Sequence record: NC_027349.1
From: Escherichia phage HY01
Length of the DNA: 64,000 nt
Reading direction: 5' to 3' (one strand)
Below are positions 17-6,190 of this stretch, piece by piece. The notes below the pieces were generated by a model. That model had not been told where the DNA came from, made no database searches, and saw only the letters and a program-made list of their open reading frames with translations. Every line of letters begins with the position of its first letter. Within the stretch, counting starts at the first letter, position 1. The position numbers and the translations under genes are program-made.

Positions 17-505
17 TCATTTTAATTTCCTGCATTCAGTGATAAAGTTATTTAAATTTTGAGTATATTTCTTTTCATCAAAAATCTTTTGTTGTCTGCG
101 TAGCCGCCATGGCATTTCAATGAACGTGTACCATATCCCAGATAATATTGCTGCTGTAAAAATATTAACAAGTATGGTTAAAAGAATCCAATCTCCTATT
201 CTGTCCATTGGATTTTTTATAAAAAAGTAAAATACGAATGATGTCACAGGAAGACTAATAATATACCACAGAATCATAATCTTATCTGTGAACCAATCAG
301 CGTTCGTTAACTTAGCGCGACCATTATAAATACACACGAATTTATCATCTGTTGCAGTAGATGGCTTAACTGGTTGATATCCCATTCTAAACTCCCTAAT
401 CAACAAATTTTTCATATCTTCGGAACAGCCATTCCAGTCAACTCTATCAACTGAAATGCCATCATCCCCATCATCTAAATCATACCAGCGAGTTTTTAAA
501 ATCAT
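17..505 (-). CDS. hypothetical membrane protein, paralog 1 of 3 (162 aa; two predicted TM helices in the C-terminal half; C-terminal motif FITECRKLK)
   Basis: ORF with ATG at 503-505 and AGGAAA RBS; hydrophobic stretches ILWYIISLPVTSFVFYFFI and WILLTILVNIFTAAILSGIWYTF; tail motif shared with the next two genes. Confidence 0.55.
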   Translation of the reverse strand: MILKTRWYDLDDGDDGISVDRVDWNGCSEDMKNLLIREFRMGYQPVKPSTATDDKFVCIYNGRAKLTNADWFTDKIMILWYIISLPVTSFVFYFFIKNPMDRIGDWILLTILVNIFTAAILSGIWYTFIEMPWRLRRQQKIFDEKKYTQNLNNFITECRKLK

Positions 506-864
506 TTAATTTTCCTGCAATCGCTCACAAACTCTTTCATTGATTCATTTTCAATATAAGACATGTAGCTATTGTATTCTTTTAATTGTATTTTGTAATC
601 CTTTTTTCTTTGCCAATTTATTTTAAAATTATCATAATGAAAATATAGTATAGTGCCAAAGAATGAAAATAATGAAATCGCTATAGTAAAACGAAGTTCA
701 CTCCAAACCTCTGTTATAATTGCTGAACCATCGATGTTTAAAATAATACAGTCAATCATTAATCCAATAAGACTACCAGCAAGAGCTGCAAATACTGACA
801 CGGCAAGAATTAATAGTGCCTCGGGAAACGAATATTTGACTTTATTTAGTTTTGGCTTTTGCAT
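502..864 (-). CDS. hypothetical membrane protein, paralog 2 of 3 (120 aa; 2 TM; C-terminal FVSDCRKIK)
   Basis: ATG at 862-864 with AAGGAA RBS; 4-nt overlap with downstream gene; hydrophobic segments; shared C-terminal motif. Confidence 0.55.
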   Translation of the reverse strand: MQKPKLNKVKYSFPEALLILAVSVFAALAGSLIGLMIDCIILNIDGSAIITEVWSELRFTIAISLFSFFGTILYFHYDNFKINWQRKKDYKIQLKEYNSYMSYIENESMKEFVSDCRKIK

Positions 865-1226
865 CGTGATTCCTTAACAAATTTCATAATTTCGTTAAAT
901 TCATACATATCTAGTTTAAGCTGGTGTTCCTTTTTAATCTTTTTACACTGAGCTTTCCATTCACGTACGCGTTTACGATAATGTCTTCCTTGATACCAGT
1001 ATCCTACCCAATTTACAGGTACTAATAAAAATGGAACTATCATTGGAAGAATTAGTGTTGACACAAATATTACATCAAATTTATTAGCAGTCATAACGTC
1101 TATAACCATTCCAGCTATAAATGATACAACTACAACAGGACCCATTAATACATCGGTAGAAATTATCTGGCGCTTTAATTCATACTTCAAAGGTTTACTT
1201 GGAAGGTATAGTGATGGCTTTGACAT
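846..1226 (-). CDS. hypothetical membrane protein, paralog 3 of 3 (about 126 aa from ATG at 1226; track start 1247 is TTG; 2 TM; C-terminal FVKESRCK)
   Basis: ORF; hydrophobic segments GPVVVVSFIAGMVIDVM and FDVIFVSTLILPMIVPFLLVPV; shared tail motif; start ambiguous. Confidence 0.5.
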   Translation of the reverse strand: MSKPSLYLPSKPLKYELKRQIISTDVLMGPVVVVSFIAGMVIDVMTANKFDVIFVSTLILPMIVPFLLVPVNWVGYWYQGRHYRKRVREWKAQCKKIKKEHQLKLDMYEFNEIMKFVKESRCKSQN

Positions 1227-1809
1227 ATTCTCTACATTCCTTAACAAATTTTTCTAGTAATAAATCGCTTTCAAAATTAGGATTTTCTACGAATTTATCA
1301 AAAAGATCATCAACAACAGTCAAGATATTCTTTTTACTAAGAATACGCTTATTTTCATATTTTGTTTCAGAGTCAACTATAAGAGTAAAGAAATATTTCT
1401 TTCCCTGAAATTTTACCGTAGTATCAATATAAAATAAATTTGACTTTTGTAAATTACGTTTAAACCCTGCGTCACTTAAACTGTAAACGCCAAGATAATC
1501 ATAATCGTCGTTTAAATAACAAACTGTCCATTCAGGGGAAACGAAATCAGTAAATTCAACATCAAAATCACACGTCAATGAATGAATTGATTCAATACTT
1601 TTAATAAGTATTCCAGGGCGTATTAAAGACTTTTTACCTCTATAAAATCTTCCAGAAAGACTTTCATCAGTTTCATATGAAGACCCCCAATAGTAATTAC
1701 GTCCTTCTGCCATACGTTTAAGAGCATTTAGTAATTGGTCTGGAACATCAACCTGTCTTTGGAACTCTTCAAACATTGAATTGAAATCACTTTGCATTTT
1801 CATTTTCAT
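1195..1809 (-). CDS. hypothetical protein (204 aa), C-terminus ends KFVKECREYVKAI
   Basis: ORF with ATG at 1807-1809 and GGAG RBS; no recognisable domain. Confidence 0.55.
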   Translation of the reverse strand: MKMKMQSDFNSMFEEFQRQVDVPDQLLNALKRMAEGRNYYWGSSYETDESLSGRFYRGKKSLIRPGILIKSIESIHSLTCDFDVEFTDFVSPEWTVCYLNDDYDYLGVYSLSDAGFKRNLQKSNLFYIDTTVKFQGKKYFFTLIVDSETKYENKRILSKKNILTVVDDLFDKFVENPNFESDLLLEKFVKECREYVKAITIPSK

Positions 1810-1826: not shown

Positions 1827-1848
1827 ATAAGGGGCCGAAGCCCCTTAT
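1827..1848 (-). terminator. GC hairpin GGGGC-CGAA-GCCCC, T4-style intergenic stem-loop
   Basis: perfect inverted repeat with tetraloop between the stop at 1851 and the start at 1809. Confidence 0.5.
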
Positions 1849-1850
1849 CA

Positions 1851-2444
1851 TTATTTCAGAGAATTAATGTATTCCTGAACATCGGCAGAGGTAGTTTCAA
1901 CCCCGGAAATATTACCGTTAAAGGTTTCAACTCGAGCAAGAGTATCTTCAATATCAACCTTAGTTAGCGCTGCGATTTCAACTACATCATCAGCAGTACT
2001 AATTCCAAGGGCATTTGCCGCACGAGTTTCACGGATATATTCCAATTTAACTGCAAGTTCTTGACGAGCATCATCTAACTCAACTACTTTCTTGGCGATT
2101 TCAATTCGCATTTCAGCATAACCATCAGCTTTAGTAGTCAACTGCTCAGCTGTTCGACGATATAGTAAACCGAGCTTAGCATGCATTGTTACATCTTGAC
2201 CTTCGGAAAGAAGTTTGCGAATTTCACGCTCTTTTGATTCGGCTTGTCGATTCTTTTCGATAACAAGTTCACGAATACGTTTTTCTTCATTAATAGATTT
2301 AACAGAAGCAGTTTTTAGGTCTTTAATTTTATCAAGAAGTTTTGCTGCTGCAGCAGTATACTGTTCTTCAACAGATAGATTTTTAGCCATAGCAGAACCA
2401 AGTTTAGTGCGAATAAACTCAACAATTTTCTTCAGTGTGTTCAT
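1851..2444 (-). CDS. hypothetical coiled-coil protein (197 aa)
   Basis: ORF with ATG and AAGGAAA RBS; charged K/E/R/A-rich heptad-like sequence; promoter immediately upstream. Confidence 0.6.
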
Positions 2445-2486: not shown

Positions 2487-2516
2487 ATTATATCATGCTA
2501 TTTAAGAGATGTAAAC
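2487..2516 (-). promoter_or_regulatory. early-type sigma70 promoter (-35 GTTTAC, 18-nt spacer, -10 TATAAT)
   Basis: minus-strand GTTTAC (plus 2511-2516) and TATAAT (plus 2487-2492) upstream of the start at 2444. Confidence 0.55.
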
Positions 2517-3003
2517 TATTTTTAATTTTACAAATTCGTTCAGCTTCTTCAACAGCGGCGATAATGCTTTTAGCTATAGGAGTACTAATACTAGTAGCTT
2601 TTACACTTAACACGATTTCTTTATCTTTACCAGGCCAACCCCACGATTTTTCACCGTGAGTGCCTTTAATTACAGCAGACACCTCAAGTGAGCATCCATT
2701 ATCATATGTTTTTACATTGACAACCCAAGGTTCACTTTTCTCAATCGGTTTATCCCAGTAAATATTAAGAATACGTGGGACATCAAATTTGGCAGGACAA
2801 ATCTTAACCGTAAGACCTTCGCTTTCTAGCCAATTAATAAGAGGGCGTTCATACAGGCGACGATGTGGGCTTGGGATTCGACAAGCCTTATGTCCGTTGC
2901 TTGCGGCTTCACTAAGCTGTTCTAATACCTGCTTTTGCATTATTGATAAGATACCATCAAAAGATTTTTCGGAAGTTTCATTCAGTTCGGTATAAAGAGA
3001 CAT
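2488..3003 (-). CDS. hypothetical protein (171 aa)
   Basis: ORF with ATG at 3001-3003 and GAGGAAA RBS. Confidence 0.6.
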   Translation of the reverse strand: MSLYTELNETSEKSFDGILSIMQKQVLEQLSEAASNGHKACRIPSPHRRLYERPLINWLESEGLTVKICPAKFDVPRILNIYWDKPIEKSEPWVVNVKTYDNGCSLEVSAVIKGTHGEKSWGWPGKDKEIVLSVKATSISTPIAKSIIAAVEEAERICKIKNSLHLLNSMI

Positions 3004-3532: not shown

Positions 3533-3556
3533 AGCCCCAACCTTTTGGTCGGGGCT
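3533..3556 (-). terminator. hairpin AGCCCCAACC-TTTT-GGTCGGGGCT downstream of the CTS gene
   Basis: 9/10-bp stem; near-identical copy at 4091-4114. Confidence 0.55.
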
Positions 3557-3562
3557 AAAATG

Positions 3563-4036
3563 TTATTTGATTTGTTTAGCAGACCAAATGCGGTCTTTAA
3601 TAATTTTTTGGATGTCTTCAACATACTCAAGAGAGTGAGCATGTGGATTATCTTTGAAACTATAAGCGCGGGCTAACTTTTGGCCTTCGGTTTTGATTAC
3701 TAAAAGCTCTTTAAGGATAGCTTCATATTTAGCGATAATTCCTTTAACGATATTTTTTTCTTGTGCAGCTTTAGGATCTGCTTTAGGAGCAGGTTTACCT
3801 GAAGCCTTTGCAAAAGCAGCGCCAGTAGCAACTAAACTTTTCCAGGCCATACTAACTGCATTTCCCGTAAATCCTTCTGCTTTCATGTCGCGAGCAAACT
3901 GGAATCGTGATTCGTCAGAAGCATCTTTATAGGAATATTTACCCGCTGCAATGGCTGCTTTTGCGACAGCTTGAATTTCGGTGCTAGATGCTTCATTTAA
4001 CACCGCTTCATTTAAAAATTGAGCATATGATTTCAT
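3563..4036 (-). CDS. internal-protein-like capsid-packaged protein with N-terminal CTS MKSYAQFLNE|A (157 aa)
   Basis: N-terminus matches the 10-residue T4 IPII/IPIII capsid targeting sequence pattern (MKTYQEFIAE) with an L-x-E gp21-type cleavage motif; Lys/Ala-rich body; ATG and AGGAAA RBS. Confidence 0.6.
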   Translation of the reverse strand: MKSYAQFLNEAVLNEASSTEIQAVAKAAIAAGKYSYKDASDESRFQFARDMKAEGFTGNAVSMAWKSLVATGAAFAKASGKPAPKADPKAAQEKNIVKGIIAKYEAILKELLVIKTEGQKLARAYSFKDNPHAHSLEYVEDIQKIIKDRIWSAKQIK

Positions 4037-4090: not shown

Positions 4091-4114
4091 AGCCCCAACC
4101 TTTCGGTCGGGGCT
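4091..4114 (-). terminator. hairpin AGCCCCAACC-TTTC-GGTCGGGGCT ending the stable-RNA operon
   Basis: stem-loop nearly identical to 3533-3556, followed by T-run on the minus strand. Confidence 0.55.
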
Positions 4115-4787: not shown

Positions 4788-4863
4788 TGGTCGAGGCAGT
4801 AGGGATCGAACCTACGACCTAGGACTTAGAAGGTCCTTGCTCTTCCTTCTGAGCTATGCCTCG
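4788..4863 (-). tRNA. tRNA-Arg (anticodon UCU)
   Basis: cloverleaf by hand folding; anticodon loop CUUCUAA; T-arm GUAGG-UUCGAUC-CCUAC; CCA encoded. Confidence 0.85.
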
Positions 4864-4867
4864 GATT

Positions 4868-4942
4868 TGGCGGACGTGATAGGATTCGAACCTATAACCA
4901 ATCGCTTAACAGGCGATCGCTCTGCCATTGAGCTACACATCC
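4868..4942 (-). tRNA. tRNA-Asn (anticodon GUU)
   Basis: hand folding: acceptor GGAUGUG/CACGUCC, anticodon stem AUCGC/GCGAU, loop CUGUUAA. Confidence 0.75.
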
Positions 4943-4946
4943 AAAT

Positions 4947-5034
4947 TGGTGGGGAGTGATGGAGTCGAACCACCCGAGTCGCAATGACAATGGATTTACA
5001 GTCCACACCGCTACCTCTACGGAATAACTCCCCA
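4947..5034 (-). tRNA. tRNA-Tyr (anticodon GUA), type II with long variable arm
   Basis: anticodon loop GACUGUAAAUC matches the bacterial tRNA-Tyr loop; long variable arm; acceptor GGGGAGU. Confidence 0.8.
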
Positions 5035-5042
5035 AATTAATT

Positions 5043-5117
5043 TGGTGGCCCTGGGTGGAATTGAACCACCATCTGGCGATTATGAGTCGCTTGCTTGAAC
5101 CTTCCAGCTACAGGGCC
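5043..5117 (-). tRNA. tRNA with CAU anticodon (Ile lysidine-type by analogy to T4 tRNA-Ile, or Met)
   Basis: acceptor GGCCCUG/CAGGGCC; anticodon loop CUCAUAA. Confidence 0.75.
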
Positions 5118-5118
5118 T

Positions 5119-5194
5119 TGGTGCTGATTGACGGAATCGAACCGCCGACCTTCTCATTACAAGTGAGTTGCTCTACCTACTGAGCTAAATCAGC
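5119..5194 (-). tRNA. tRNA-Thr (anticodon UGU)
   Basis: acceptor GCUGAUU/AAUCAGC; anticodon loop CUUGUAA. Confidence 0.8.
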
Positions 5195-5199
5195 AAAAC

Positions 5200-5289
5200 T
5201 GGCGGAGGCGATAGGATTCGAACCTATGAGTCGCCGGAGCGACTGCCGGTTTTCAAGACCGGTGCATTAAACCACTCTGCCACGCCTCC
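5200..5289 (-). tRNA. tRNA-Ser (anticodon UGA), type II
   Basis: acceptor GGAGGCG/CGCCUCC; anticodon stem CCGGU/ACCGG, loop CUUGAAA; long variable arm. Confidence 0.8.
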
Positions 5290-5295
5290 AAATAT

Positions 5296-5904
5296 TTATA
5301 TATTGTTAATTTGATTTAGAATTCTTTTTGCTTGAGTATGACTTACGCCAATATGCTTAGCATATTTAGATAATTCACCACGCTTAGAAAAATCATATAA
5401 TTTAGAAATTTCTATTCTTCTTTTTCTTTCATCCGCAGAAACTTTTGCTTCGTTTGCTTTTGCTATTTTACGTTTAGCTTCTTGAGAATGAGTTTTACCA
5501 GCAAAGCCATTCTTCATTAATCCATTTGAAGACCATCCTTTTAATTTTCCGTTAGAATGTGCCTTTTTAACACCCAATGAAATTAATTCGCGTTGCTGAT
5601 CTGTCATAGGATAATTATTTATATGGTCCCATCCACCTTCACCTCCAAGTTTTAAATTATACACATCTGGTCTATTTAAAAACTCTTCTGTGACAATATT
5701 TTTCTCGGCTTCAAGCATAGATTCTTTATCATCAAAATACTCTAATATTTCTTTAGAAAAATTTTCTATACCATATTTATCTTGGGCTCTTTTTAATAAT
5801 TTACCAGAACCCATATATCCATCATCTAAATTTTCGGTAGAATGCACACCAATATAAATTTTATTATTAATTTTATTTGTTATTTTATAAAGATAAAAAT
5901 GCAT
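5296..5904 (-). CDS. segB: GIY-YIG homing endonuclease (Seg-type, segB-like position inside the tRNA cluster); 202 aa from ATG at 5904, track start 5946
   Basis: N-terminal FYLYKITNKINNKIYIGVHS (GIY...YIG), downstream conserved R, E and N positions; basic C-terminal DNA-binding region; GGGA RBS before 5904. Confidence 0.7.
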   Translation of the reverse strand: MHFYLYKITNKINNKIYIGVHSTENLDDGYMGSGKLLKRAQDKYGIENFSKEILEYFDDKESMLEAEKNIVTEEFLNRPDVYNLKLGGEGGWDHINNYPMTDQQRELISLGVKKAHSNGKLKGWSSNGLMKNGFAGKTHSQEAKRKIAKANEAKVSADERKRRIEISKLYDFSKRGELSKYAKHIGVSHTQAKRILNQINNI

Positions 5905-5950
5905 ATCAGTCCCTAATAAAGAACTGAGCGTCTCACGACGAGTCATAAAT

Positions 5951-6024
<74 letters not shown>

Positions 6025-6029
6025 AAATT

Positions 6030-6116
6030 TGGTGCGAGAAGTGGGACTCGAACCCACAAGGAAATCATTCCGCAGCATTTTAAGTGCTGTGCCTTTACCA
6101 ATTTGACCATTCTCGC
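6030..6116 (-). tRNA. tRNA-Leu (anticodon UAA), type II
   Basis: acceptor GCGAGAA/UUCUCGC; anticodon stem CAGCA/UGCUG, loop CUUAAAA; long variable arm. Confidence 0.8.
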
Positions 6117-6117
6117 G

Positions 6118-6190
6118 CTGGGAATAAAGGACTTGAACCTTTGCATCCTGGAATCAAAATCCAGTGCCTTACCAACTTGGCTAATTCCCA
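6118..6190 (-). tRNA. tRNA-Gln (anticodon UUG), CCA not encoded, 1 nt from tRNA-Leu (dimeric precursor arrangement)
   Basis: acceptor UGGGAAU/AUUCCCA; anticodon stem CUGGA/UCCAG, loop UUUUGAU. Confidence 0.8.

Follow-up and report, generated by a model that had tools for sequence, protein, structure and literature searches.

What do adjacent phage genes that end in the same short peptide have in common beyond that ending, and what might the ending do? The question is raised by the first genes of a 64,000-nucleotide stretch of Escherichia phage HY01 (NC_027349.1), which as a whole is called here the window. A sequence-only reading had described, at positions 17–1247, three tandem paralogous small membrane proteins of 162, 120 and about 126 amino acids (aa) with a conserved C-terminal motif, preceded by a 204-aa gene with a similar ending, and had thought of lysis timing or superinfection exclusion. 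The consecutive minus-strand open reading frames (ORFs), their overlaps and their four lengths are as that reading gave them; only the outer limit of the span moves, since position 1247 is an upstream TTG and the ATG start of the third gene lies at 1226. The genes are the phage T4 early genes e.2 (17–505, minus strand, 162 aa), e.3 (502–864, minus strand, 120 aa) and e.4 (846–1226, minus strand, 126 aa from the ATG, 381 nt in the annotation of phage PEC04), plus e.5 (1195–1809, minus strand, 204 aa, soluble), which are known, uncharacterised genes of T4.

The window, with about 35% GC, belongs to Tequatrovirus: over its first 2.5 kb it has 100% identity to Escherichia phage PEC04, a member of this genus, and 90–98% identity to hundreds of T4-like phages. 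The genes lie between the tRNA cluster (4788–6190), which is upstream, and nudE with the lysozyme gene e, which are downstream, and their order is syntenic with T4 e.2–e.6. T4 e.2–e.5 (UniProt P32273, P32274, P39222 and P39223) are thus orthologous, with the same order, overlaps and position between the tRNA cluster and nudE/e; the identity to T4 is 82% for e.3, 93% for e.5 and 98% for e.6. The window e.2 differs from that of T4 in being full-length (162 vs 102 aa), and the window e.4 has 126 aa where T4 has 130. T4 e.2–e.4 are annotated as 'conserved hypothetical, predicted membrane protein', and the genes themselves are therefore already known as T4 ORFans. What appears undescribed in the literature searched is a shared tail under amino-acid selection, its dual coding with the ribosome-binding site (RBS) of the next gene, and its presence on soluble carriers.

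The C-terminal tail motif

The tails read LNNFITECRKLK in e.2 (20–55), MKEFVSDCRKIK in e.3 (505–540), IMKFVKESRCKSQN in e.4 (849–890) and LEKFVKECREY in e.5 (1225–1257), all on the minus strand. In its general form the motif is hydrophobic(-3)-x-x-[FW](0)-[IV](+1)-x-x-C(+4)-[RK](+5), and it is amphipathic. For its strict form, F[IV]x[ED]C[RK], 0.098 occurrences would be expected among 796 six-frame ORFs (83,359 residues) from about 164 kb, i.e., the window and 100 kb from the PEC04 record, but there are three, all of them in the C-terminal 17 residues of the products of the neighbouring genes e.2, e.3 and e.5. This excess, together with the conservation of the motif in orthologues from five genera of Tevenvirinae, supports that the shared tail is not a product of chance, and the likeness previously noticed in the 204-aa gene is a strict match (FVKECR). 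In a 25-sequence alignment of e.2 reaching down to 29% identity, F154, C158 and R159 are invariant, and so are F112 and C116 of e.3 across three genera.

The earlier claim that all three membrane proteins end in the motif holds for e.2 and e.3, but not fully for e.4, whose terminal copy has no Cys at the motif position. The e.4 family has instead an invariant internal W90-K-x-Q-C94-K-K. In the window this internal copy is VREWKAQCKK (939–968, minus strand), and BLASTP aligns it with the terminal motif of e.3. The e.4 sequences suggest that the protein holds a Cys-containing copy internally plus a degenerate, Cys-shifted copy at its end.

All of these tails lie on gene junctions. The stop codon of e.2 overlaps the nudE start (ATGA, 17–20) and that of e.3 the e.2 start (ATGA, 502–505), with the AGGAAA inside the e.3 motif being the Shine-Dalgarno sequence of e.2. 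The e.4/e.3 and e.5/e.4 overlaps are of 19 and 32 nt, the e.4 tail covering the e.3 start (864) and its Shine-Dalgarno sequence AAGGA, and the e.5 tail the e.4 start codon (1226). The motif could thus be a nucleotide-level artefact, that is, a coupling cassette (Shine-Dalgarno sequence and ATGA) or a recombination linker kept at junctions, with the encoded peptide having no role. Tails collected from orthologues and positional equivalents in five genera (Tequatrovirus, Mosigvirus, Dhakavirus, Jiaodavirus and Kanagawavirus) give this explanation some ground. Of 17 junctions, 12 have the best Shine-Dalgarno sequence of the following gene inside the motif, 10 of them within the +2/+3 codons, and where the +2/+3 residues change (R-S, K-G, E-E) the purine-rich core AGGAG, AAGG or AGGA stays. 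Besides, the frequent final Lys of the tails arises from AAA-TGA stop/start overlaps, and pairs of junctions in the window share the nucleotide strings TTTGTTAAGGAAT and GA.TGCAGGAAA.TTAAATG.

On the other hand, the codons used in the 27 unique tails argue against it. Arg is encoded by both of its codon families (AGG 8, CGT 7, AGA 6, CGC 3, CGA 2), Cys by TGC (12) and TGT (10), and Phe by TTT or TTC, and this mixture points to selection at the amino-acid level on F, I/V, C and R. None of the Shine-Dalgarno sequences takes in F, I/V or C, and the hydrophobic residue at -3 is also conserved. At the five junctions where the Shine-Dalgarno sequence lies elsewhere or no start is nearby, F-I-x-x-C-R is kept and +2/+3 are free (ME, KE, KY, AK, AE); the motif is retained 32–56 nt from the next start in VR5 gp134, VMC05 gp134 and VMC05 gp128, and in IME281 gp144 it is retained although there is no start nearby. 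A purely nucleotide-level cause as the sole explanation is therefore largely refuted by the codon data, and a peptide of no consequence at these junctions is hardly probable. We conclude that the motif is composite, with F, I/V, C, R and the hydrophobic -3 residue belonging to the peptide and with a dual-coded middle. Placed on an amphipathic helix, the residues of the peptide part line up as an i, i+3/i+4, i+7 stripe, and the hydrophobic moment (muH) is 0.45–0.7 in 11 of the 12 tails analysed, the exception being Klebsiella phage gp128 (0.22). This hydrophobic stripe, combined with the amphipathicity, fits a helix-helix interface.

The motif also ends proteins with unrelated bodies, and the tail is more constrained than any other segment. 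Dhakavirus has a positional e.5 (VR5 gp134) with 13 tail residues in common with T4 e.5 (FIKECREYAKE, 69% identity), and no other similarity between the two was detectable outside the tail. In a Klebsiella phage of Jiaodavirus, an e.5-like protein ends in FIKYCRERAQK, an e.4-like protein in FVKEVRRK, another protein with two transmembrane segments (TM) in WIRSCRK, and a soluble 102-aa protein encoded beyond nudE in FIAKCRAK, while phage ATK47 has an additional 101-aa two-TM protein ending in NLENFIKECRGK. Carriers with unrelated bodies, some of them soluble, are e.5, the Klebsiella phage proteins gp128, gp132 and gp134, and the 101-aa protein of ATK47, and several carriers per genome are found in four of the five genera sampled. 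Since the tail also ends soluble proteins (e.5, Klebsiella gp128), it is not a feature of a single membrane-protein family. For e.5, an exhaustive HMMER search of 1.84 billion proteins returned five cluster representatives, all of them close relatives or fragments.

Relationships and membrane topology of e.2, e.3 and e.4

The window proteins match their PHROG families over their full or nearly full length: e.2 matches PHROG 2203 over residues 1–160 (E=3.2e-79), e.3 PHROG 2330 over its full length (E=1.8e-57), in agreement with its position after e.4, and e.4 PHROG 2604 over its full length (E=9.3e-64), while e.5 belongs to PHROG 2607. The e.4 protein also has the N-terminal LYLPSKP, internal W-x3-C and terminal F-V-K-E-x-R of its family, in whose alignment P9, P12, Y15, W90, C94, K118 and R121 are invariant. 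The gene e.2 directly precedes nudE, with which it overlaps, in keeping with the place of its family next to nudE or separated from it by a single small ORF, and this adjacency is also seen in IME08, ABTNLsp5 and PEi26. The precomputed Pfam tag PF26896 is carried by 88 of 88 e.2 homologues found, including those 85–97% identical to the window protein, and the family is assigned to the window e.2 through these tags of its homologues rather than by direct scoring. Homologues of e.4 carry the precomputed tag PF26873, and those of e.3 have no Pfam tag.

PHROGs and Pfam tags thus place e.2, e.3 and e.4 in separate families, and in pairwise BLASTP among the three proteins only the tail aligns. Comparison of the family alignments by hhalign separates the pairs. 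The e.3 and e.4 families align with a probability of 91% (P=1e-6) over 41 columns, i.e., the whole cytoplasmic segment, e.2 and e.3 with 64% over 17 tail columns only, and e.2 and e.4 show no significant similarity (10%), with reversed-sequence controls giving 0.6–5%. BLASTP provides a bridge between e.4 of ATK47 and the 'e.3' of VR5 (27% over 95 residues, E=1e-5), and the N-termini of e.3 and e.4 are alike (M-x-K-P). The sequence comparisons thus indicate that e.3 and e.4 are true paralogues and that e.2 forms a family apart, which has a conserved cytoplasmic domain of its own at the N-terminus and only the tail in common with the others. No homology beyond the tail linking all three was found by hhalign or BLASTP, and of the three tandem paralogues proposed from the sequence two remain.

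The tandem arrangement itself is not general. About 3 kb separate e.2 from e.3 in Mosigvirus and Dhakavirus, where e.2 adjoins nudE, and therefore the tandem e.4-e.3-e.2 is specific to Tequatrovirus. Where e.2 is not adjacent to e.3, it is preceded by a highly conserved protein of 228–229 aa (MNGPKTF...HMLMPGWYPAIPGYHHDDVPRP...EFPMEGW; loci L007 2219–2908, L008 2219–2908, L009 2243–2929 and L004 6585–7271), which has no counterpart between e.3 and e.2 in the window.

Hydropathy gives two hydrophobic segments each in e.2, e.3 and e.4, and none in e.5. The e.2 gene encodes a cytoplasmic N-terminal domain (287–505), TM1 (221–286) and TM2 (125–199), followed by a cytoplasmic helix and the tail; in e.3, TM1 (739–822) and TM2 (640–696), located by hydropathy, precede a cytoplasmic tail; and in e.4, TM1 (1095–1157) and TM2 (1002–1079) are followed by about 50 residues of cytoplasmic helix (minus strand throughout). 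From the charge distribution, both termini of the three proteins are predicted to be cytoplasmic, with periplasmic loops of about 5–16 residues. AlphaFold2 models, monomeric and built from the family alignments, were obtained for e.2 and e.4. The e.2 model (pLDDT 78.6) consists of a small N-terminal domain, TM1 at residues 74–95 and one continuous helix at residues 103–160, and the e.4 model (pLDDT 72.9) of TM1 at residues 24–44 and one continuous helix at residues 50–125. The two hydrophobic helices per protein noticed earlier are borne out by both hydropathy and these models, as is the description of small membrane proteins with a conserved C-terminal motif. We have high confidence in this structural description of e.2, e.3 and e.4 as predicted inner-membrane proteins forming N-in/C-in two-helix hairpins. 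In the e.2 and e.4 models, TM2 extends without a break into the cytoplasm as one long basic helix, whose tip bears the motif.

The 25-sequence alignment of the e.2 family adds a further clue, having its invariant columns in the N-terminal domain (W7, D11, D12, G16, W24 and C27) and in the tail only, and none in the membrane helices. With invariant columns only at the cytoplasmic ends, the membrane segments of e.2 look like anchors and the cytoplasmic ends like the functional parts.

Possible roles of the tail

Searches for a function gave no lead. Scans of e.2–e.7 with Pfam, NCBIfam and PADLOC gave no significant family, and PHROGs gave families of unknown function only. A sequence search of the PDB with the e.2 profile had nothing below E=0.1, and Foldseek searches with the e.2 model (BFVD, PDB) and the e.4 model (BFVD) found their own families only. 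The literature search retrieved no paper treating e.2–e.5 in its main text; they are listed solely in the supplementary tables of a T4 multi-omics study (PMC9697503). From these (supplementary files 4 and 6), the T4 orthologues e.2–e.6 have early RNAs and all five proteins are detected, the expression data coming from T4 and not from HY01.

The best explanation overall, which we put forward tentatively and as somewhat short of probable, is that e.2–e.4 are N-in/C-in hairpins and that the tail serves e.2–e.5 as a docking or assembly helix. The functional part of this proposal, a putative docking or assembly helix, is held with low-to-moderate confidence. The tails of e.2, e.3, e.4 and e.5 would pack together and tether the soluble e.5 to a membrane-anchored complex, the conserved Cys possibly bridging a metal; alternatively, all four tails could recognise a common partner on the cytoplasmic side of the inner membrane. 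The role of the proteins would be an early one, serving host takeover, exclusion or counter-defence rather than the timing of lysis. A more specific version, in which the Phe-[Ile/Val]-x-x-Cys-Arg tail is the assembly code of an early T-even complex composed of e.2–e.5 and genus-specific substitutes, possibly with a Cys-ligated metal and with one host-takeover or counter-defence function, is doubtful.

Several observations weigh against a docking helix. The models are of moderate confidence only (pLDDT 73–79), and AlphaFold2 tends to draw a long lone helix for any such tail. Translational coupling accounts for part of the motif, namely +2/+3 and the terminal K. The terminal copy of e.4 has no Cys at the motif position (FVKESR-C), Klebsiella phages have FVKEVRRK, and a strict Cys-based mechanism therefore cannot apply to all members. 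Finally, the T4 reference e.2 has 102 aa owing to a 1-nt deletion in the A-run TTTTTTATAAAAAATCC (A6 in HY01, window positions about 203–219; A5 in T4, locus L003 3860–4347), which removes TM2 and the tail from the annotated product, with the downstream NNFITECRKLK intact in another frame. This 102-aa form is present in at least 30 database sequences, and by this frameshift the e.2 tail is dispensable at least in the T4 lineage. The T6-A-T-A6 context of the A-run might support slippage.

The tolerated loss of the e.2 tail in T4 is also what would be expected of independent binders, i.e., membrane and soluble proteins that each use the tail on the same host target, as inhibitors or decoys in an arms race, and do not assemble with one another. 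The very fast divergence of the bodies next to an invariant tail, the set of carriers that changes between genera, and the early and accessory nature of the genes agree with such binders, but no PADLOC, Pfam or NCBIfam match supports them, and we consider them possible, if on the unlikely side. The idea raised by the sequence-only reading, that these are lysis-timing (in this case holin/antiholin-like) or superinfection-exclusion membrane proteins, draws on their being small two-TM phage proteins near the endolysin gene e, and early expression is compatible with exclusion. T4 Imm and Sp are likewise early membrane proteins, and, together with RI and holin T, they are small phage-encoded inner-membrane proteins of T-even phages, as e.2–e.4 are predicted to be. 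Sp, RI and the C-terminal domain of holin T act in the periplasm, whereas the predictions put the conserved parts of the e.x proteins in the cytoplasm. With both termini predicted in the cytoplasm and such short periplasmic loops, the proteins are not predicted to have a sensing or inhibitory domain in the periplasm. Neither in sequence nor in fold was a similarity to Imm, Sp, RI or holin T detected; homology to holins or antiholins was absent in Pfam, PHROG and NCBIfam, homology to Imm or Sp in Pfam, PHROG and Foldseek, and no known lysis or exclusion family was matched. In addition, the T4 RNAs are early and not late, with no late expression alongside the lysis cassette, the annotated holin, lysis-inhibition and immunity genes of the phage lie at other loci, and a soluble protein has the same tail. 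Early expression, a cytoplasm-facing topology and the motif on a soluble protein thus argue against holin/antiholin lysis timing and against periplasmic mechanisms of the Sp/RI type. A lysis-timing role is unlikely, and the combined lysis-or-exclusion proposal is improbable; for superinfection exclusion taken alone, the evidence speaks neither for nor against.

Homologues of e.3 and e.4 appear in public records as 'sulfurtransferase', 'DNA primase' or 'putative 15.1 kDa protein', the first of these names being carried by several e.3/e.4 clusters. Taken with the invariant Cys-Arg of e.2, e.3 and e.5, it could hint at an enzymatic site, a guess being a rhodanese-like catalytic C-R-K. However, no rhodanese or other enzyme family was matched (for rhodanese, with E values of up to 1 considered), the helical hairpins modelled for e.2 and e.4 have no catalytic domain, and the terminal motif of e.4 has no Cys; such a site is highly improbable. 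The 'sulfurtransferase' naming is rejected on the basis of the missing rhodanese match and the hairpin models, and, like 'DNA primase' and the 'host specificity protein' of other records of these proteins, it is unsupported here and points to annotation noise. Many of the e.3/e.4 homologues sit in bacterial assemblies (E. coli, Salmonella, Shigella, Xanthomonas pisi) and are probably phage contigs or contamination with propagated misannotation.

The docking or assembly helix that we prefer has a parallel in the general concept of docking helices and short linear motifs through which several clients attach to one hub, given that the e.x proteins likewise have a conserved amphipathic helix of about nine residues at the C-terminus of unrelated, co-expressed proteins; as to function, the analogy with a docking hub is speculation. 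At the level of the genome, promoter-early stem-loops have been proposed to mediate modular shuffling in T4-type genomes as junction cassettes. Like these cassettes, the e.x tails are short and conserved, sit where genes meet, and belong to a hyperplastic region with a gene content that varies between genera. Unlike junction cassettes, the e.x element lies inside coding sequence and is kept through synonymous changes, that is, at the peptide level.

About half of the T4 genes are still without an assigned function, and the e.2–e.8 block is typical of such accessory regions. A motif that is invariant across five genera, while its carriers diverge beyond recognition, offers a concrete handle on this region and names the residues of interest (F, C and R). 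It predicts that the four ORFans e.2–e.5 are best studied as one unit, with the tail peptide (e.g., ESMKEFVSDCRKIK) as a simple bait for a partner. The locus is also a clean example of dual coding, in which the middle codons of a protein motif double as the RBS of the overlapping next gene, and it cautions against assigning a junction motif to protein or to RNA alone.

Neighbouring genes and other observations

Between e.6 and e.5 there is a UUCG-tetraloop hairpin (1827–1848, minus strand; -15.6 kcal/mol, z = -2.2), which delimits the translationally coupled e.5-e.4-e.3-e.2-nudE block on its upstream side. The plus-strand ORFs at 653–877 and 1199–1408 are antisense to conserved genes and unsupported.

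The gene e.6 (1851–2444, minus strand, 197 aa) is the most conserved of the block, with 60–98% identity across genera, and is present also in Klebsiella, Aeromonas and RB43-like phages. As read from its sequence the protein is largely helical, and it had no family, PDB or defence-database match. A relationship to PspA/ESCRT-III-like proteins found no support, PDB sequence searches with e.6 and with the e.6 profile giving nothing below E=0.1, and the name 'host specificity protein' is given in some records without evidence. The distribution of e.6 (1105 phage records vs 533–691 for e.2, e.3 and e.4) does not support that it is an obligate partner.

Downstream of e.3, Dhakavirus and Mosigvirus have a tandem array of three to five small soluble proteins of 65–101 aa (L005 3866–5122, L006 3851–5093, L004 3857–4651 and L016 3351–3641). 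These end in W-[VF]-[ST]-S-S-x-x-C-stop (GAWVSSSQMC, GGWVSSSSEC, TSWVSSSYEC, GFWFTSSMSC), with a shorter variant KIWYPSSC. They make up another paralogue family, distinct from the first, in which a C-terminal Cys motif is conserved. No ORF of the W-[VF]-[ST]-S-S-x-x-C type was found in about 164 kb of PEC04 scanned.

At the e.7 position (2488–3003, minus strand), the window encodes a 171-aa protein of PHROG 6869 that looks unrelated to the 111-aa e.7 of T4, representing a gene replacement in the hyperplastic region. Further upstream, two near-identical GC-rich, terminator-like hairpins on the minus strand (3533–3556 and 4091–4114), of the form AGCCCCGACC[A/G]AAAGGTTGGGGCT with a T-run after it, lie on either side of a 157-aa ORF (3563–4036) at a place, between rnaC and e.8, where T4 has no annotated gene. 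The arrangement suggests the insertion of a cassette with repeated stem-loops at its borders.

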